The notes below the pieces were generated by a model that ran no database searches, had not been told where the DNA came from, and saw only the letters and a list, made by a program, of their open reading frames with translations. Made by a program: the position numbers and the translations under genes. A DNA stretch of 9,864 nt from a virus (taxonomy: Duplodnaviria > Heunggongvirae > Uroviricota > Caudoviricetes), in the IMG/VR virus record IMGVR_UViG_2695420817_000017, one strand, 5' to 3'. This document shows, in pieces, positions 1,287 through 9,864 of this stretch (the stretch's first letter is position 1; each line of letters begins with the position of its first letter).

Positions 1287-1670
1287 TCAACCAATCAGCT
1301 TATAGCGACCTTCCCGTGCATTGCGGCGTACACGCTCAATCTTGAGGCATAGCGCCGCATCTGGCTTTTTTGGGACAGATACGCGGCAATATTCAGAAGC
1401 GCGAGGGATATTATTTATCCAGTCAATTACTTCACTTAAATACCATGCCTTACGCCCCTCAGTAACCTGAACACGCTCAGGAAACTCACCACGGGCTTCA
1501 AGGTTTAACAAAGTTCGACGGCTAAGGGTGGTCAGTTCCATAACCTGGTTCATATCTACCAGGCGTTCGCTTAAGCGCATTTTGTCAGCAATAGCCTTTA
1601 ATTCCTCTACTGCTGGATCCGGATACATCATTTCGGCAATTGGCTTAAGGTCATTGTAATGATTCTGCAT
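1287..1670 (-). CDS. AlpA/excisionase-like HTH domain protein (127 aa), function unassigned
   Basis: ATG at 1670..1668 preceded by AAGGGGGAT, 4 nt after the decoration-gene stop, so probably co-transcribed. The central segment LTTLSRRTLLNLEARGEFPERVQVTEGRKAWYLSEVIDWI fits the AlpA/Xis (HTH_17/MerR-like) DNA-binding pattern. Ends ~55 bp before cosN. Confidence 0.6.
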   Translation of the reverse strand: MQNHYNDLKPIAEMMYPDPAVEELKAIADKMRLSERLVDMNQVMELTTLSRRTLLNLEARGEFPERVQVTEGRKAWYLSEVIDWINNIPRASEYCRVSVPKKPDAALCLKIERVRRNAREGRYKLIG

Positions 1671-3284: not shown

Positions 3285-3358
3285 GCAGAATTTAAAACGG
3301 TATATTATCGCCGTACGGATCATCATTCCCCGACTGTTGTTTTGCCCTGTTCAGTGCG

Positions 3359-3715
3359 TCAGTGGCCTGCCCCTGCTGGCCTTTTTTTGCCGCCCGGTCG
3401 CGCCGTTCGCGCACTGATTACGCTGTCTGCGATAACCTGCCAGCCCTGCCGCGTTTCGCCGTTCTGGCCTGTCCACTGGCTTACCTGCATGTTACCCGCC
3501 ACGCTCACCAGTTCGCCTTTGTGGTGTTTTGCCAGTGCGTCGGCCTGTCTGCCAAACGCCAGGACGGATAACCACATCGTCGCCGTTCCGTCATCTGCCT
3601 GGCTGCACGGAAGGGGGACCGCCATACTAGCCATCGCCATTTGTGTACCCTTGCTGATGGTCTTTAACTGCGGGTCAGCCACCAGCCGTCCGTAAGCCGC
3701 TATCTGTGCTGTCAT
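3359..3715 (-). CDS. SSB-like OB-fold protein lacking the acidic C-terminal tail (118 aa)
   Basis: ATG 3715..3713 with GGAGAG 8 nt upstream; start overlaps the stop of the upstream ORF (ATGA). YGRLVADPQLKTISKGTQMAMASMAV...WLSVLAFGRQADALAKHHKGELVSVAGNMQVSQWTGQNGETRQGWQVIADSV follows the bacterial SSB OB-fold pattern (G-L-DP..., W..V..FG..A...KG..V.V.G...W.D..G..R). C-terminus is basic (PGGKKRPAGAGH) instead of an acidic DDDIPF-type tail. Confidence 0.6.
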   Translation of the reverse strand: MTAQIAAYGRLVADPQLKTISKGTQMAMASMAVPLPCSQADDGTATMWLSVLAFGRQADALAKHHKGELVSVAGNMQVSQWTGQNGETRQGWQVIADSVISARTARPGGKKRPAGAGH

Positions 3716-4332: not shown

Positions 4333-6456
4333 TTAATCTTCTGCCTCAGGCTGGAACATCAGCACGTAAAAAACATGCTGCTTCCCCCCAATTTTGCCGA
4401 GAGCCTTTTTCTTGTAACGGCGATCGTTACCCGCTTCCAGCATTCCGGCAGCACTCAACGCGCGGGCAAAGTGGGACGGGTTAAATCCCTGTGCGATCTC
4501 CCCCTCAAACACATGAGGAAACGTGTAAAAACGGAACTCATCATCTTCATTTCTGATACTCCCCTTTCTGTATCCGGCAAGGTCTTTAATCGGTAAATCA
4601 CGTTCATCACTGTTTGGGTAAGGAAGGTATCGACTGAACCCGAACGACGACAAAAACGCCTCAGCCTGTTCAACCATCTGTTTAAATTCCCTGTTACCCG
4701 TGCCGAACTCCTTCACCCAGGCATTAAAGTTATGCTGTATTGCGTCCCGGCATTCCTGCGCGGCCCAGCCAGTTACATGACCGGAAAGCACAAGCGCGGC
4801 CTCCAGTATGGCGAAACGCTCACCCACGCGGTGGACTTGCTCGCCGTAGCTCTCCGGTATCAGGTTGCGCCACCGTTCGCGGCATTCCCTTACCGTATCC
4901 TTTGCCTCCTGCTGGTGGCCTGCCAGCCATTTAACCCACTCACGACCCGCTGCCCCGTGATTTTCTGTCCAGGCATCCTTTAACGCGTCTGCGTGCGCCT
5001 TTCCGGTGCTGTATTCGTGAAAGTGCGTGGCTTTTTCCATCGGAACGTTAAGCAGGCGGACAAGCTGCCCCGCTTTGACTTTTATCCCCTCCGTTTTGAG
5101 GAATGTCTCAACGTCCATTTCTCCGGTGCTGATTGCCACCGTGCGCCAGTGTTTTATCTCCCGGTTGCCGCCGTCCTTCGCCCCCTGTAATTTCCCGGAA
5201 CCGTTAAACAACGTATAGGCTGACGTGGACACCTCCCGCGCGTTTCCGGCCTGGCCTATTTCATCCAGGGGTAACAGCCCGTCGTTGTGCGCCTCTGCCT
5301 CGTTAGCGATACCTAACGCTGTGCCGTACCAGGTCAGCCGTTGTGCGTCCGGCTCTCCCCATAAACTTGATGCGATGTTCTGCGTGGTGGTTTTCCCTGC
5401 CGATGACTGTTCGAAAAGATGTACCCCAAAGCCGTCAGCACCAACAAGGCCAATCAAAGGTGCTGCCAGTGACGTGGCAACACCCAGCATCATGGACGGA
5501 TTGCCACCAGCCAGCCGCGCCACGCAGTCGCGCCAGCCCTCCGACGTACCCGCAACCGAATAGCCATTAACAGTGGCACTTTTTCCGGTAAACAGGATCG
5601 GTTTTTCAGAATCACCAATGATTGAGCCGTCCGGCATGATATACGCGCCAAAATGCCAGCCCGTTGTTGTGCTTAGCTGCCATTCCTCATGGCTTCCGCT
5701 TAACTGCATCCAGTCAGCCAGGATAGCCCTGTATTTGCCGTTTGTTGTCACGTTCAGCCCGTGATCTTTAAGCAACCGCCAGCCGTCACGGTCGCCAATG
5801 CCACCACACGGGATCGCCATTGTGATGACTTCATGGTTTGCTAATTTTTTCCAGCGCATCACGCGGTAATGCTCTTTACCGATCGTCCCCGTTCCCAGTA
5901 GTTCAAGCGGAGAACATAACCACGTCTCAGGCCGGATAATTTCGCCTGACTGCTTATCCACTTTGGGCGTTACCCAGAAAACACCATCGACGCGACTTTC
6001 AACGCGGGGCTTTAATTCATCATCCTGATAGCATGGCTCTTTTTTCTTTACAGGCAGTTCAACTACCTTTTTCTTTTCCGCCTGCTCTGCCCGTTCACGT
6101 TCCAGATATTCGCGCCAGTTCTCCCGTTTCTGGCTGTGCATTCCTTCAGGGTAATAATCAGCATCCCTGACACCTGCCGCTGCCAGTTTCTGCCCGATGG
6201 TATTAACAAGCCCCGGACGCAATAACCCCGCCTGATAGAGACGCACGCGATAGCGTCCGTCCGGTACGATTTGCAGGTTGTCCAGTTCGGCAAGTTGTTG
6301 CTCTCCAAGCCAGACAGGAGGCACGTTATCGCCAGCCAGTCGCCCGTCCTGTTCCTGCCACTGCTTCGCATGTGCCCACGCATCACTACCCGCAAAAATG
6401 ATGACTTCCGTCATTTTGTCACGCGGCTGGTGTTTTAAATTTGGCGCTTTTTTCAT
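4333..6456 (-). CDS. Primase/helicase-family replication protein (pri-rep, P4 alpha-like role), 707 aa
   Basis: ATG 6456..6454 with GGAGAGAG upstream; the track ORF starts 15 nt further up at GTG. Walker A motif FEQSSAGKTT mid-protein. Size, position after alpA and adjacency to the iteron array fit a satellite primase/helicase. Exact family not verifiable without a search. Confidence 0.85.
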   Translation of the reverse strand: MKKAPNLKHQPRDKMTEVIIFAGSDAWAHAKQWQEQDGRLAGDNVPPVWLGEQQLAELDNLQIVPDGRYRVRLYQAGLLRPGLVNTIGQKLAAAGVRDADYYPEGMHSQKRENWREYLERERAEQAEKKKVVELPVKKKEPCYQDDELKPRVESRVDGVFWVTPKVDKQSGEIIRPETWLCSPLELLGTGTIGKEHYRVMRWKKLANHEVITMAIPCGGIGDRDGWRLLKDHGLNVTTNGKYRAILADWMQLSGSHEEWQLSTTTGWHFGAYIMPDGSIIGDSEKPILFTGKSATVNGYSVAGTSEGWRDCVARLAGGNPSMMLGVATSLAAPLIGLVGADGFGVHLFEQSSAGKTTTQNIASSLWGEPDAQRLTWYGTALGIANEAEAHNDGLLPLDEIGQAGNAREVSTSAYTLFNGSGKLQGAKDGGNREIKHWRTVAISTGEMDVETFLKTEGIKVKAGQLVRLLNVPMEKATHFHEYSTGKAHADALKDAWTENHGAAGREWVKWLAGHQQEAKDTVRECRERWRNLIPESYGEQVHRVGERFAILEAALVLSGHVTGWAAQECRDAIQHNFNAWVKEFGTGNREFKQMVEQAEAFLSSFGFSRYLPYPNSDERDLPIKDLAGYRKGSIRNEDDEFRFYTFPHVFEGEIAQGFNPSHFARALSAAGMLEAGNDRRYKKKALGKIGGKQHVFYVLMFQPEAED

Positions 6457-6752
6457 TTCTGCTCTCTCCACGCGGCAATCATGTTTTTCAGTTCCTGTAG
6501 TTTTTTATCCACATTCACACGTGACACATGGTTTTTTCTGGAAAGCGGGATTTCCCGCCTGAATCTGCTAATAAAGATCTCCACGTTCAGCGAACTATGA
6601 AATGAATAGCCATCACGAATAAAATACACACGGTCAAACATCAGTTCTTTTACCGTTACTCTGTTACCGTTCTTATCCAGATAAATAGCGCCGGGGATAA
6701 TTTTGGGGTGTGCATAACCGCTGGCAGTCAAGCCAGATAAATATGTTCTCAT
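6453..6752 (-). CDS. Hypothetical basic protein (99 aa), AT-rich cassette gene 2
   Basis: ATG 6752..6750 with GGGGAT upstream; stop TGA overlaps the primase ATG (ATGA). Net charge about +9 by residue count. Visibly AT-richer than the flanking primase gene. Confidence 0.55.
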   Translation of the reverse strand: MRTYLSGLTASGYAHPKIIPGAIYLDKNGNRVTVKELMFDRVYFIRDGYSFHSSLNVEIFISRFRREIPLSRKNHVSRVNVDKKLQELKNMIAAWREQK

Positions 6753-6758
6753 GATTAT

Positions 6759-7079
6759 TTATCCCCGATTTGAATCAGTATTCGCTTTCTTTATAGCATT
6801 TAATGCATCTGTGGCATTTTCAATGGTGCACCGTAACGAAATATCAAAATGTCCAAGCATTGCCAGTAACAAACCAATATTACCCATATCAATGCGCATG
6901 GCCTTTTCGTCATAGTCCTCATTTTCTGACGCATGCCACATCAGGCTACCAATTGACGCAACAGCCATTGATATATTGTCAGTAGCCCCATCCGCAGCGG
7001 AATAAACCTTTTTAGCAATATCATGCTCACAGTTAAAATGCGGATTAATCAGGTACTGGTAATTTGACATATCAGGCAT
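6759..7079 (-). CDS. Hypothetical acidic protein (106 aa), AT-rich cassette gene 1
   Basis: ATG 7079..7077 with AGGGGG upstream, overlapping the stop of the upstream small ORF by 8 nt. Net charge about -7. Alternative start at 7070. No family recognised. Confidence 0.55.
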   Translation of the reverse strand: MPDMSNYQYLINPHFNCEHDIAKKVYSAADGATDNISMAVASIGSLMWHASENEDYDEKAMRIDMGNIGLLLAMLGHFDISLRCTIENATDALNAIKKANTDSNRG

Positions 7080-7275
7080 GGCACACCCCCTGACGAATAC
7101 GGGCAGCGAATACCATCACGCAGCCAGCCGGGGATTGCAGGCGTGCTTCCTGTTCGCTGGCGGCCTCAATGGTAATCACGCGCGGTTGTGCCGTGCTCAG
7201 GGCGATAAAACGCCAGATGTATTTATTCAGGTTGTGCGAGTCCCGCCCTTGCGGGTGTGTGGTATGATTTAACAT
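7072..7275 (-). CDS. Small protein (67 aa), possibly host cell division inhibitor Icd-like family
   Basis: Only the last 67 codons of the 304-aa track ORF are credible: ATG 7275..7273 preceded by GAGG; MLNHTTHPQGRDSHNLNKYIWRFIALSTAQPRVITIEAASEQEARLQSPAGCVMVFAARIRQGVCHA. The WRF...FAARI pattern recalls Icd-like proteins of P4-like islands; this is recollection only. First gene of the operon leading to the primase. Confidence 0.5.
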   Translation of the reverse strand: MLNHTTHPQGRDSHNLNKYIWRFIALSTAQPRVITIEAASEQEARLQSPAGCVMVFAARIRQGVCHA

Positions 7276-7372
7276 AGCTACCTCGATACGCTTTCTATCG
7301 TTGGTGGTTAGAAGCCCGGTTAGTGTTAGCGCACTGCCGGGTTTCGTCGTTTCTGCACCTTGCATCAACAAG

Positions 7373-7424
7373 GTGTTGAACACCAATTTAAGCCCTGGTG
7401 TTAAACACGTCAAGTGTTGAACAC
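7373..7424. promoter_or_regulatory. Three operator-like palindromes GTGTTRAACAC in the divergent promoter region
   Basis: GTGTTGAACAC at 7373..7383, GTGTTAAACAC at 7398..7408, GTGTTGAACAC at 7414..7424 (centre spacings 25 and 16 bp). The third overlaps a possible plus-strand -35 (TTGAAC 7419..7424, 17-nt spacer, CATACT 7442..7447) for the RHH gene. Confidence 0.6.
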
Positions 7425-7474
7425 TTATTTTTTTTCCTGCATACTGCATTTGTTTTTTGTAAGGGGTACACAAC

Positions 7475-7654
7475 ATGGCGACAAAAGCAGTAAACGCAAA
7501 ATCACAAACAGTTGCGGCAAGGGTTCCGCATGAAGTTATGAACAATGTTGAGGCGGTAAAAATGCCTGGTGAAAGTACAGGGCAGTTTGTAACAGCAGCA
7601 TTAAAGCGAGAAGTTGAATACCGCCAGCGTCGCAAGGCCAAAGAGCAGGAATAA
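7475..7654 (+). CDS. Ribbon-helix-helix (CopG/Arc-like) small DNA-binding protein, 59 aa
   Basis: Absent from the ORF track (under 60 aa). ATG 7475 with AAGGGG 8 nt upstream, stop TAA 7652..7654. MATKAVNAKSQTVAARVPHEVMNNVEAVKMPGESTGQFVTAALKREVEYRQRRKAKEQE fits strand-helix-loop-helix. Divergent from the replication operon. Confidence 0.6.
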   Translation: MATKAVNAKSQTVAARVPHEVMNNVEAVKMPGESTGQFVTAALKREVEYRQRRKAKEQE

Positions 7655-7711
7655 CCATCACCAGCGCCGTGGTGTAAGGTATTACGGCGCATTGCTATGC
7701 AGGACAACACA

Positions 7712-7885
7712 ATGACCGATAAAGAATTGACCAAAACATTATCACCGGCACGGAAAAGACGGCGCAGAAAGATAGAGCATGAATCAGAAAGATTCGCGCC
7801 ATGTGCTTTTGCCCTTGAGCAATTCCTTAAAGAGTACAGGGAAACGCGCCCATTGCAGGTATGGCAACGAACTGAACCAGACTGA
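7712..7885 (+). CDS. Hypothetical small basic protein (57 aa)
   Basis: Second ATG of the track ORF, chosen because AGGA lies 7 nt upstream (7701..7704). MTDKELTKTLSPARKRRRRKIEHESERFAPCAFALEQFLKEYRETRPLQVWQRTEPD, with an RKRRRRK basic patch. Followed by a plus-strand terminator. Coding status uncertain. Confidence 0.4.
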   Translation: MTDKELTKTLSPARKRRRRKIEHESERFAPCAFALEQFLKEYRETRPLQVWQRTEPD

Positions 7886-7949
7886 TTGCATTGCCCACCA
7901 GCCTGATAGCGGCTATCATCCCCGTGCTTATGTTTAGTGTTTTCCCATT

Positions 7950-7977
7950 GGCGACCGCCCCCGGTCGCCTTTGTTTT
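7950..7977 (+). terminator. Rho-independent terminator between convergent genes
   Basis: Stem GGCGACCG (7950..7957), loop CCCC, stem CGGTCGCC (7962..7969), then TTTGTTTT. Sits 65 bp after the small plus-strand ORF and 20 bp after the alpA stop. The minus-strand reading lacks a U-tract. Confidence 0.65.
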
Positions 7978-7996
7978 ATGTGTCATATGCTCCCCT

Positions 7997-8206
7997 TTAC
8001 ACTGCCTTACCTGAATTAATGCGATCCCGGCTTTTAACCCATTCCATAACCTCGGACAGCAGCCACCCTACAGAACGACCGCCCAGATTAAGACGTGACG
8101 GAAAGCTCCCTTTTTTCTCCAGTTCGTAGCGTGTAGTGCGACACACTCCAGTTAACTTACGACATTCATCCTCACGGATTACGCGATCTTCATTTATTTC
8201 ACGCAT
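7997..8206 (-). CDS. alpA: AlpA-family transcriptional regulator (phage/island HTH activator), 69 aa
   Basis: ATG 8206..8204; the track ORF extends to a GTG at 8293 through AT-rich, low-complexity sequence that looks like promoter DNA. ECRKLTGVCRTTRYELEKKGSFPSRLNLGGRSVGWLLSEVMEWV matches the AlpA signature (...FP.P.KLGGRSV.W...EV..W.). Classic position between int and the replication genes. Confidence 0.85.
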   Translation of the reverse strand: MREINEDRVIREDECRKLTGVCRTTRYELEKKGSFPSRLNLGGRSVGWLLSEVMEWVKSRDRINSGKAV

Positions 8207-8625
8207 ACAAAAACCTACATAAAAATTACGTATATAAACTTTTCTCTTAGCTGTAGATATATGAGATCGGATATTACTTAGATTCTTTTTCACCTCTTAA
8301 ATTAAAAACACAACCATGCTAAAGGCTTTGTTCGCTAAGGTTCGTAGAAGCTCGTTAGTGTTTAAAATCGTGTCACGAGTTTTTAAGCGACGCAACAAAA
8401 AATGTCGTCATTTGGCATGACACCTTAATTACCTCATTAAAAACAAATAGATAAACCATCAGGTGTTGGAACAATCAAGAAACAGAGAATAAGAACTCAG
8501 AAGAAGACATTTCAATTTTTTTCGATAGTTGACACATATAAAGAGAAGATATTTGCAGATATTCCCCGATATTCTAAGATCTATTCACGGCTGTAATCTC
8601 TTAAAGAAAAAACAGCCGTAATTTG
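8207..8625. promoter_or_regulatory. AT-rich intergenic region between int and alpA (probable alpA promoter/control region)
   Basis: About 420 bp of visibly AT-rich non-coding DNA with no credible ORF. Contains inverted repeat ACGGCTGT (8587..8594) / ACAGCCGT (8612..8619) just 3' of the int stop. No promoter hexamers assigned with confidence. Confidence 0.4.
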
Positions 8626-9864
8626 TCAAGAATTTTGGGGGTAAATTCGCGGGGTCATAACAACGATTTTTTCATCATTGTTCTGGAGAAGCTCGAGACG
8701 GTCTACCCATAGATTAAGAGCATCACGTTTTGCATCAAGGTAGCGGGAGTGGTTATAGACTCGTTGCATCCCTGGCATCTGGTGGGCTGTAAGCTGCTCG
8801 ACAATATGCGGATCCACGCCTAAATCGTTCAGCATGGTTGTAAATGTGTGCCGGATATCGTGTAACGTCCAGGGGGCTTGATTAATTCGTCTGTGCGCTG
8901 TTCTTCCGTACTCTGCTACCGAAGATTGTCCTTTCAGTTCACCAAGCAATAAGCCTGAGTGTCTGTTCTGCTCCACCAGTTGCGTGACGAACGGCAAAAT
9001 GCTTTCCGGTATTGGCCTGAATATGGCGACCTTCGTTTTGCTGTGCTCCTTCGGTACTGTCCAGAGCATTTCTTTAAAATCCCACTCCTGCACCTCAGAG
9101 CGCCTTAGCTCAGTGGTACGGCATCCAAAAACAATCAGGAGGCGAATTAGGGCGCTGTAGTATGGCGGGAATATTTTGTCATCCAGGGCGCGGAGTAATT
9201 CCCCAAGCTCCTTATTTGTTAGTACGCGCTCGCTCACTTCTGCTTTTTTTCCCACATCACCGACAACCATATCATCAAGAACGTTGCTGATTGCGTATCG
9301 TCGTTTTCGGCAGTACTTAAGCGCCTGTTTGCATACCTGTAGCAAAAATCCGGCAGATACAGGGCTTCGCTTTGCCATCTGGTCAAAACATGCCAACCAG
9401 TGCCGTAGCTCGCATTTTTCCAACGGCAAAGCGCCAATCTGGCTGATTATGTGTTTATTGATCCGGCTTTTCAGTGATTCGTAGTCAGTGCGCTTTTCCT
9501 TTGCATACGATTCAAGCCAGTAAGTGAGCGCTTCCTTAACTGTCACGGGGGCTAACGCATCCTGTACAGCACGATTAAGCTCATAGCGCGGATTTTTCCC
9601 CTCAGCCAGCCAGGCGCGACACTGTGCTGCTTTTTCCCTGGCTGCTTTCAGGCTCAGATCGGGATAATTGCCCAGTCTCAGACGTTCCGGTGATACCTGC
9701 CTACCAGTTCCGGCCCTGTAAGTGAAATACCAGGTTAACAGGCCGCTGGTGGAATGTCTTACGCTAAGATTGCCACCGTCATTAAAAAAGGCGTTTTTTG
9801 TGGTTGGTGATCCGCTTAATTTTCGTAAAAGAGTGTCGCTAAGTCTATGAATTGCGCTGCTCAT
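8626..9864 (-). CDS. int: Tyrosine recombinase / integrase, P4-type (412 aa)
   Basis: ATG is the last three bases of the window (9864..9862), stop TGA 8628..8626. N-terminal region resembles the P4-integrase arm-binding domain. C-terminus carries the catalytic pattern HDIRHTF ... HQMPGMQRVYNHSRY (H-x-x-R and nucleophile Tyr). Whether the true start lies beyond the window cannot be excluded. Confidence 0.9.
   Translation of the reverse strand: MSSAIHRLSDTLLRKLSGSPTTKNAFFNDGGNLSVRHSTSGLLTWYFTYRAGTGRQVSPERLRLGNYPDLSLKAAREKAAQCRAWLAEGKNPRYELNRAVQDALAPVTVKEALTYWLESYAKEKRTDYESLKSRINKHIISQIGALPLEKCELRHWLACFDQMAKRSPVSAGFLLQVCKQALKYCRKRRYAISNVLDDMVVGDVGKKAEVSERVLTNKELGELLRALDDKIFPPYYSALIRLLIVFGCRTTELRRSEVQEWDFKEMLWTVPKEHSKTKVAIFRPIPESILPFVTQLVEQNRHSGLLLGELKGQSSVAEYGRTAHRRINQAPWTLHDIRHTFTTMLNDLGVDPHIVEQLTAHQMPGMQRVYNHSRYLDAKRDALNLWVDRLELLQNNDEKIVVMTPRIYPQNS

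Follow-up and report, generated by a model that had tools for sequence, protein, structure and literature searches.

[quoted passage not shown] In the SaPI-type elements this is Stl (Rpr), a large helix-turn-helix (HTH) protein that acts at the divergent stl-str promoters and is inactivated by helper-phage proteins. In the prototype Gram-negative PICI, EcCICFT073, the demonstrated helper-responsive regulator is instead an activator, AlpA, whose overexpression alone induces the island (PMC6092414), and no repressor had been identified. Control regions in which small proteins and RNAs act together have been described in other phages. In the immI region of phage P22, the ribbon-helix-helix (RHH) repressors Arc and Mnt bind short symmetric operators that overlap the divergent promoters Pant and Pmnt, one repressor autoregulates, and the small cis-antisense RNA sar adds translational control of the first gene of the repressed operon. 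In the immI region of phages P1 and P7 (c4 antisense RNA, icd, ant), an icd-type gene at the head of an operon is controlled by a small antisense RNA encoded in the same leader region, and both c4 and the CI RNA of P4 are processed from the sense transcript and act on upstream target sites. Finally, in Escherichia coli K-12, SymR (Rfam RF01809) is an antisense RNA of about 77-80 nt that starts at the start codon of the opposite-strand gene symE, next to a LexA-controlled promoter.

Here, we analyzed a stretch of 9,864 nucleotides (the window; IMG/VR record IMGVR_UViG_2695420817_000017) in which three copies of an 11-bp palindrome had been noticed between two divergent transcription units. The original prediction held that these palindromes form a repressor-operator switch controlling satellite replication, with the small RHH protein encoded next to them as the obvious candidate binder. 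We find that the observation is correct, and that the interpretation is supported, although by sequence comparison only.

Results

An island of the EcCICFT073 type

The window is identical to sequence from E. coli AR_0077 (NZ_CP026755) and comprises a whole island of about 10 kb inserted between clpS and cspD. It carries, on the minus strand, an integrase gene (8626-9864), an AlpA-family regulator gene, an Icd-like gene, orf106, a DUF4222 gene, a gene for a 712-aa DUF927 primase-type protein, orf80, a frameshifted SSB gene, homologues of a major capsid protein and of a head-decoration protein, a second AlpA-like gene, and a small-terminase (TerS) homologue. Only two genes run the other way: the 59-aa gene and a small downstream ORF, which is followed by a one-directional terminator at 7950-7969. 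This layout is collinear with EcCICFT073, which shares int, alpA, an inverted YlcI-family gene, icd-like, DUF4222, primase, SSB, and capsid (c1499) and decoration (c1500) homologues (PMC6092414), although the primase type and the integration site differ. The window therefore has the gene content of a Gram-negative PICI of this type, an island of about 10-15 kb with int, alpA and a primase/replication module, phage-like capsid and terS homologues, and no tail or lysis genes; dependence on a helper phage has been shown only for EcCICFT073 and a few others (PMC6092414). The features relevant to the control region are as follows.

4333-7079, minus strand: the rest of the operon under the predicted promoter P_L, comprising orf106 (6759-7079), DUF4222 (6453-6752) and the DUF927 primase-type replication protein (4333-6471)
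7072-7275, minus strand: Icd-like gene (67 aa), first gene of the operon, with its start at ATG 7275 preceded by a GAGG Shine-Dalgarno (SD) sequence
7260-7268, plus strand: extended -10 (TGgTATGAT) of a putative antisense-RNA promoter, inside the icd-like coding sequence
7273-7356, plus strand: putative SymR-like cis-antisense RNA of about 80 nt, with two hairpins and a U-run, complementary to the SD sequence, start codon and leader of the icd-like gene
7373-7383: putative operator O1, GTGTTGAACAC, immediately downstream of the P_L -10 at about +1, at offset -102 from the ATG of the 59-aa gene
7385-7413, minus strand: P_L, predicted sigma-70 promoter of the icd-like, orf106, DUF4222 and primase operon (-35 TTGACG at 7413-7408, 17-bp spacer, -10 TAAATT at 7390-7385)
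7398-7408: putative operator O2, GTGTTAAACAC, in the P_L spacer and overlapping the last base of the -35, at offset -77
7414-7424: putative operator O3', GTGTTGAACAC, containing the predicted P_R -35, at offset -61
7417-7445, plus strand: P_R, predicted promoter of the 59-aa gene (-35 TTGAAC at 7417-7422, 17-bp spacer, -10 CATACT at 7440-7445)
7475-7654, plus strand: gene for the 59-aa YlcI/YnfO-family protein, the candidate repressor with an RHH sequence pattern, whose predicted DNA-reading strand is residues 10-16 (SQTVAAR)
7712-7885, plus strand: small basic ORF of 57 aa (orf57; 62 aa, orf62, if started at 7697), probably co-transcribed with the 59-aa gene, matching phrog_21027 and annotated as a hypothetical protein in CFT073
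7950-7979, plus strand: predicted intrinsic terminator of the RHH-orf57 transcript, GGCGACCGCCCCCGGTCGCC followed by a T-run, with no T-run on the other strand
7997-8293, minus strand: AlpA-family regulator gene, converging on the 3' end of the RHH unit

Three palindromes overlap the core elements of two predicted divergent promoters

Exact matches to GTGTTRAACAC occur at 7373-7383, 7398-7408 and 7414-7424 and nowhere else in the window, with start-to-start spacings of 25 bp and 16 bp. Allowing up to 1 mismatch, the scan gives 6 strand-matches against 0.44 expected, and 0 of 200 dinucleotide shuffles reach 6. Relaxing to 2 mismatches adds only one unrelated hit, at 461, such that no extra copies were found at alpA, int or the late genes. 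Sites 1 and 3 extend to perfect palindromes of 13 bp and 15 bp. The interval 7276-7474 is exactly the gap between the ATG of the minus-strand icd-like gene (7275) and the ATG of the plus-strand 59-aa gene (7475), and the minus-strand unit does lead to the primase, as had been proposed.

A promoter scan returned a single minus-strand promoter in this region, P_L, which the original prediction had missed. Site 2 fills its spacer and abuts the -35, while site 1 begins two bases after the -10 and covers the predicted start site. On the plus strand, the proposal that the third palindrome overlaps the probable -35 of the RHH gene also holds, since TTGAAC lies inside site 3 at 17 bp from CATACT. This pair scores 8 of 12, below the scanner's cut-off of 9 of 12, and was read by eye, but its -10 is conserved as TATACT in most relatives. 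On both predicted promoters, these are positions at which a bound protein would be expected to repress.

The adjacent 59-aa protein has a ribbon-helix-helix sequence pattern

The 59-aa product matches the NCBIfam model YlcI_YnfO_N (NF041551) at 59.7 bits against a cut-off of 30 (E = 2.1e-16, residues 9-50), RefSeq gives it the same product name, and it also matches phrog_949, a family of unknown function. Its sequence shows the order characteristic of the RHH (Arc/MetJ/CopG) superfamily, namely an N-terminal strand with alternating polar and hydrophobic residues, helix A, a G-x-S/T turn and helix B (SQTVAARV / PHEVMNNVEAVK / GES / TGQFVTAALKREVEY), and G32, E33 and S34 are invariant in 31 homologues. 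The AlphaFold monomer places helices at 19-28 and 35-58, with pLDDT about 90 over residues 21-50, and shows only these two helices, as the strand would need a dimer to form. Searches for a known relative gave little. Pfam returned no hit for the RHH, orf62, icd-like or orf106 proteins, and at E up to 10 on the 31 homologues it gave only noise-level hints to CB_ParB_C and PSK_trans_fac, at E of 0.03 or more. A PDB sequence-profile search found nothing relevant, and Foldseek of the monomer against the PDB gave no match at E of 0.001 or better, the best being the SeqA N-terminal domain and an esterase at E above 4. Alignment with hhalign to Arc and CopG sequences that were not drawn from a database was in register but weak (P = 0.007 and 0.013, respectively). 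The RHH assignment is therefore likely but not proven. K-12 YlcI (DLP12), which like YnfO (Qin) belongs to the same N-terminal domain family, shows the same strand-helix-turn-helix pattern, but its gene lies beside cos and nohD in a lambdoid prophage rather than in a satellite control region.

The sequence of the sites changes in step with the predicted DNA-reading strand

The original prediction had suggested searching related islands for the motif, and we did so in two ways. First, a profile of 31 homologues retrieved 31 loci from a collection of one genome per species, to which we added three more classes found by exact-protein look-ups and CFT073 from RefSeq. In all 35 loci tabulated, from more than 25 species, the region upstream of the RHH gene has the same skeleton: a site about 100 bp upstream of the ATG (offset -102 to -98 where it is found, with outliers at -104 and -112), the P_L -10, a site at -77 followed directly by NTCAA (GTCAA in most loci, which is TTGAC on the minus strand, the P_L -35), the P_R -10, and a site at -32, just after it. 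Part of the GTGTTGAACAC class has an extra site at -61. The window has sites at -102, -77 and -61 and lacks the usual site at -32.

The sites have the form GTG-N5-CAC, or CTG-N5-CAG where the protein has an MTRD N-terminus. All copies within a locus carry the same central bases and change together, and these bases differ between loci in step with RHH residues 10-16, giving about 12 specificity classes (RHH residues 11-16, then operator).

QT[VLI]AAR: GTGTTGAACAC
[KR]KLEAR: GTGTCAGCCAC
QK[LV]Q[AT]R: GTGGACTCCAC
QSLKSR and QALKAR: GTGTGGCCCAC
KRFDVR: GTGTCGGACAC
QKTSVR: GTGryGGACAC
QKMSAR: CTGGCACCCAG
QKIQAR: CTGGATTCCAG
QSVTAR: GTGTCTTACAC
KKIDVR: GTGTCAGACAC
QALRAR: GTGGTCTACAC
a distant Klebsiella form: a 12-mer

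In several classes the center is asymmetric and individual copies are inverted, which rules out an RNA-hairpin role.

Since operators and the RHH gene are tightly linked, co-inheritance explains part of this concordance, but three natural swaps point to the RHH protein. Edwardsiella hoshinae (locus L002) has the same RHH (58 of 58 residues) and the same three sites in an island whose AlpA is 26% identical, integrase 22%, primase 44% and Icd 53%, and at the DNA level only 7207-7648 is shared, apart from short matches in the SSB gene and at 7942-7986. CFT073 is 97% or more identical to the window on both sides of the cassette, with near-identical icd and orf57 flanks, but diverges to about 50-60% identity between 7318 and 7620, a block that comprises the second RNA hairpin, the operators, the promoters and RHH codons 1-48; it has the strand QALKAR and the operator GTGTGGCCCAC. 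A second E. coli locus (L102) keeps the window's leader RNA and RHH residues 33-59 and swaps only the operators and RHH residues 1-32. Nor does the site simply follow overall protein similarity. Proteins only 58-72% identical to that of the window, with different helix A sequences, keep QT[IL]AAR and the same operator (at 58%, in locus L048, QTIAAR), whereas the 75%-identical L102 protein, with another strand, has another site. The site sequence thus co-varies with the RHH, the only neighboring gene product that does so, and not with AlpA, integrase, primase or Icd, and the determinant narrows to about residues 1-17, which is where Arc, MetJ and CopG read DNA. This covariation of strand residues with the operator sequence is indirect support for a dimer with a two-stranded antiparallel sheet inserted in the DNA major groove.

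Second, we scanned IMG/VR for two GTGTTRAACAC sites 5-30 bp apart, using no protein information. Of the 66 loci returned, 54 have an RHH homologue starting 49-77 bp from a site, and all 54 of these have SQT[VIL]AAR. The remaining 12 lack an RHH gene and are unrelated contexts, either coding tandem repeats or a different phage group with 23-bp spacing. Conversely, none of the loci retrieved from the species collection with other strand sequences has this motif.

A putative SymR-like antisense RNA occupies the left third of the interval

A second element, also missed by the original prediction, lies in the same interval. Rfam gives a full-length SymR match (model positions 1-77) at 7276-7348 on the plus strand, opposite ATG 7275, with 32.8 bits and E = 0.0038 for the whole window, which is below the family gathering score of 61; across the models used the match runs 7273/7276-7348/7356. 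In an alignment of 22 distinct leaders, RNAalifold finds two hairpins, and 14 of 18 pairs show compensatory changes. Overall 96.5% of cells pair, against 81% in shuffles (0 of 500 reach it) and about 40% in slid controls. The strand is settled by 36 G-U cells on the plus strand against 1 on the minus strand, together with a U-run after hairpin 2. The window RNA folds at -36.5 kcal/mol (z = -5.15). A covariance model built only from these leaders, without SymR, finds K-12 symR on the right strand at 25.5 bits, with a rough E-value of 8.5e-4.

The putative RNA and SymR share their length, their start at the start codon of the opposite gene, two hairpins, a near-identical apical GUGUU(G/A)GCGCAC and a U-run terminator. 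The opposite gene, however, is icd-like here (or another first gene in relatives) and not symE, and the LexA-controlled promoter of symER takes the place of the RHH operators. An extended -10, read from the sequence, sits the right distance upstream and fits the 5' end of the RNA-model matches. The loop of hairpin 1, or the bases just 5' of it in the window, carries the complement of the SD sequence. We infer from these features an antisense RNA of about 80 nt that would pair with the P_L leader and start codon, as SymR does with symE. In contrast to c4 and CI, this would be a true cis-antisense transcript, and no Rfam C4 or isrK match occurs in the window.

Discussion

Our analysis identifies the sites, their positions on consensus promoter elements, their covariation with the RHH strand, the mosaicism of the cassette, and the structure and strand of the RNA, whereas binding, repression, autoregulation, dimer formation, and both the transcription and the action of the RNA are inferred. 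The explanation we favor, to which we assign a probability of roughly 0.77, is that the three palindromes are operators for a dimeric RHH repressor, the 59-aa YlcI/YnfO-family protein encoded 51 bp downstream of the last site. In this view, dimers on O1 and O2 would exclude RNA polymerase from P_L and keep the icd-like and replication genes off, while O3', over the -35 of P_R, would provide negative autoregulation, and the antisense RNA would block translation of any escape transcripts. The cassette, consisting of the operators plus the N-terminal half of the RHH and often the adjacent RNA hairpin, behaves like a phage immunity region: it is exchanged by recombination among EcCICFT073-type PICIs of Enterobacterales and exists in at least 12 specificities. 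The support remains comparative and rests on predicted promoters, P_R being a sub-threshold consensus match. Moreover, since AlpA alone induces EcCICFT073 (PMC6092414), the repressor cannot be an absolute block.

The parallel drawn in the original prediction with the helper-responsive master switch of PICIs is not shown by these data, as in EcCICFT073, which carries the same cassette, the demonstrated helper-responsive regulator is AlpA. As to how repression might be lifted, our leading guess is AlpA-driven read-through from the convergent alpA unit. In EcCICFT073 the helper induces alpA, and AlpA alone triggers replication (PMC6092414). In the window and in about 25 of the 31 species-collection loci, int and alpA point at the 3' end of the RHH unit, and in the window no minus-strand terminator with a U-run lies between them. 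Read-through antisense across the RHH gene and into the operon could therefore both bypass P_L and interfere with RHH expression. Pseudomonas AlpA is a processive antiterminator (PMC7969949, PMC9371919), but this step is speculation.

The resemblance to P22 immI lies in short symmetric operators for a small (here predicted) RHH repressor on two divergent promoters and in the additional cis-antisense RNA. There is, however, no detectable sequence relationship beyond the RHH pattern, there is one RHH rather than two, the sites are 11 bp of the form GTG-N5-CAC in 3-4 copies, and the controlled operon is a satellite replication module and not an antirepressor gene. With Stl, the parallel is one of genetic position only: a candidate repressor gene is transcribed divergently from the replication operon of a satellite, with putative operators in the intergenic region. 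The RHH pattern argues against an HTH fold, although the fold itself is unconfirmed, no anti-repressor is known, and the gene lies downstream of alpA and converges on it instead of heading the int side.

Among alternative explanations, all of which we consider unlikely, one possibility is that another island protein or a host factor binds the palindromes and the RHH is a bystander, or that the repeats are replication-origin iterons. PHROGs labels the Icd-like family 'transcriptional repressor', AlpA is a DNA-binding regulator that activates island genes, and repeated short sites near a primase operon could be iterons. Yet identical sites occur in L002 with an unrelated AlpA, integrase and primase and a 53%-identical Icd, and near-identical Icd and orf57 occur with different sites in CFT073. 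A host factor would not call for about 12 site variants, several of them within E. coli alone. In addition, the origins of Gram-negative PICIs were mapped 3' of the replication gene (PMC6092414), and the sites sit at fixed positions on promoter hexamers.

About equally unlikely is that the RHH binds the sites but acts as an activator, or as an architectural or partition-type (ParG or omega-like) protein. RHH proteins include activators such as AmrZ and centromere binders, and a few family members give the weak CB_ParB_C hints noted above. Sites over +1 and inside the -35/-10 spacer are nonetheless repressor positions, the site at -32 also fits repression, and there is no ParA-type partner gene in the window. 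It is also unlikely that the RHH is the antitoxin and autoregulator of a toxin-antitoxin-like pair, with any effect on the replication operon being incidental. An RHH gene followed by a small ORF under an autoregulated promoter is the usual type II layout, and a site covers P_R elements in every locus, but the downstream ORF is not conserved: no orf62 homologue turns up in the loci from other genera, and other loci have 69-aa or 126-aa ORFs, or have alpA within about 250 bp of the RHH stop. By contrast, two of the three conserved sites flank the -10 of P_L in all loci. Finally, although the promoter scan flags site 1 as a weak terminator-like hairpin on the minus strand, chance or an RNA-hairpin role is effectively ruled out by the shuffles and by the conserved positions of sites that, in most classes, have only 3-bp complementary arms (for example GTGTCAGCCAC) and cannot form a hairpin.

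RHH repressor-operator pairs are already known. What is new here is a specific candidate repressor with defined putative operators in Gram-negative satellites, including the prototype EcCICFT073, and a first proposed function for the uncharacterized YlcI/YnfO family. None of the papers that we found on YlcI/YnfO, on PICIs with RHH proteins or repressors, on Icd-like proteins with antisense RNA, or on a master repressor in E. coli PICIs describes this protein, these sites or the RNA in PICIs, although the literature searched was incomplete and a prior description cannot be excluded. The description of EcCICFT073 (PMC6092414) does not mention the RHH or these sites, a survey of E. cloacae lists YlcI/YnfO only as a 'prophage-associated protein', and PMC10111431 mentions only C4/isrK-type immunity RNAs. 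The roughly 12 natural pairs of protein strand and operator amount to a ready-made specificity table for a predicted RHH family and predict immunity groups among satellites; matches to this region occur in 1787 of 5426 complete E. coli genomes, with up to 6 places per genome. The SymR-like RNA, in turn, links a chromosomal type I antitoxin RNA to mobile-element leaders.

It is tempting to go further, although we regard this as less likely than not, and to hypothesize that the cassette of RHH, operators and SymR-like RNA is the missing maintenance repressor, or immunity determinant, of EcCICFT073-type PICIs. Its 12 or more exchangeable specificities would define immunity groups that let several satellites share one cell without cross-repressing each other, and induction would work by AlpA-loaded RNA polymerase reading from the convergent alpA unit, antisense through the repressor gene and across the operators, into the replication operon. 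As a corollary, the chromosomal symR of E. coli K-12 would be a relative, or a relic, of this satellite leader RNA.

As a minor observation on annotation, PGAP places a 'pseudo Icd-like' gene on the minus strand at 7656-7986. A tblastn search found no similarity to the Icd-like protein there, and we therefore treat this call, together with the GTG 7383 start assigned to the icd-like gene, as artifacts of a 304-aa open frame.

Predicted antisense RNA and mosaic structure of the control region

Beyond the palindromes themselves, we identified the following features in the window.

7260-7268 (plus strand), promoter-like TGgTATGAT
7273-7356 (plus strand), predicted SymR-like cis-antisense RNA
7072-7986 (minus strand), 304-aa open frame
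7697/7712-7885 (plus strand), small, very basic ORF
7950-7979 (plus strand), one-directional terminator
3292-3715 (minus strand), SSB gene
1287-1670 (minus strand), second AlpA-family or excisionase-like gene

The predicted antisense RNA is conserved, has two hairpins, and lies opposite the leader and start codon of the icd-like gene, next to the promoter-like sequence. Its assignment is supported by strong covariation, by a plus-strand G-U asymmetry, and by a reciprocal model hit to K-12 symR.

Comparisons with related loci revealed sharp mosaic boundaries, at window 7318-7620 relative to the CFT073 locus (L035) and at window 7207-7648 relative to the Edwardsiella locus (L002). The cassette is swapped between otherwise near-identical islands and is also shared between otherwise unrelated islands of different genera, as is the case for lambdoid immunity regions. 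Moreover, both the window and L002 have lost the predicted operator that the family usually carries just after the P_R -10 (window 7440-7474, compared with offset -32 in the related loci L003, L004, L040, L048, L062, L079 and L081), but they keep an extra site on the P_R -35. Some relatives have all four sites. It is possible that this difference alters the strength of any autoregulation.

Parts of window 7000-8300 match 1787 of 5426 complete E. coli genomes, with up to 6 places per genome, and therefore several cassettes can co-reside.

Neighboring genes and annotation

The 304-aa open frame runs antisense through the RHH gene and the control region. In this stretch (locus L001, 12073-12384 and 12657-12987), PGAP starts the Icd-like CDS at GTG 7383, inside the predicted operator O1, and calls a "partial Icd-like pseudogene" at 7656-7986, although we found no Icd similarity there. 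CFT073 is annotated from the ATG equivalent to 7275. These PGAP calls are probably annotation artefacts.

The small basic ORF downstream of the RHH gene contains KRRRRK, matches phrog_21027, and is followed by the one-directional terminator. It is conserved in E. coli islands but was not found in the loci from other genera, and a TA-like role for it is not excluded.

The SSB gene is annotated as frameshifted in RefSeq, so this copy of the island may be partly decayed. The second AlpA-family or excisionase-like gene (phrog_2790, E = 1e-47) sits downstream of the capsid and decoration genes and upstream of the terS homologue. By analogy with the second, dispensable alpA_1 of EcCIMP1 (PMC11773190), it is possibly a late-module regulator.

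Similar motifs outside the island family

An unrelated group of IMG/VR viral contigs (L064, L085, L086, L090, L091 and L101) carries two GGTGTTWAACACC sites 22-23 bp apart with no YlcI-family gene nearby, presumably reflecting another regulator that uses the same palindrome. In K-12, YlcI (locus L109, 4752-4946, minus strand) shows the same strand-helix-turn-helix pattern, but its gene lies beside the DLP12 cos site and nohD. The region upstream of K-12 ylcI, to L109 position 5335, contains CCACGTCAA, which is reminiscent of the junction between O2 and the P_L -35.
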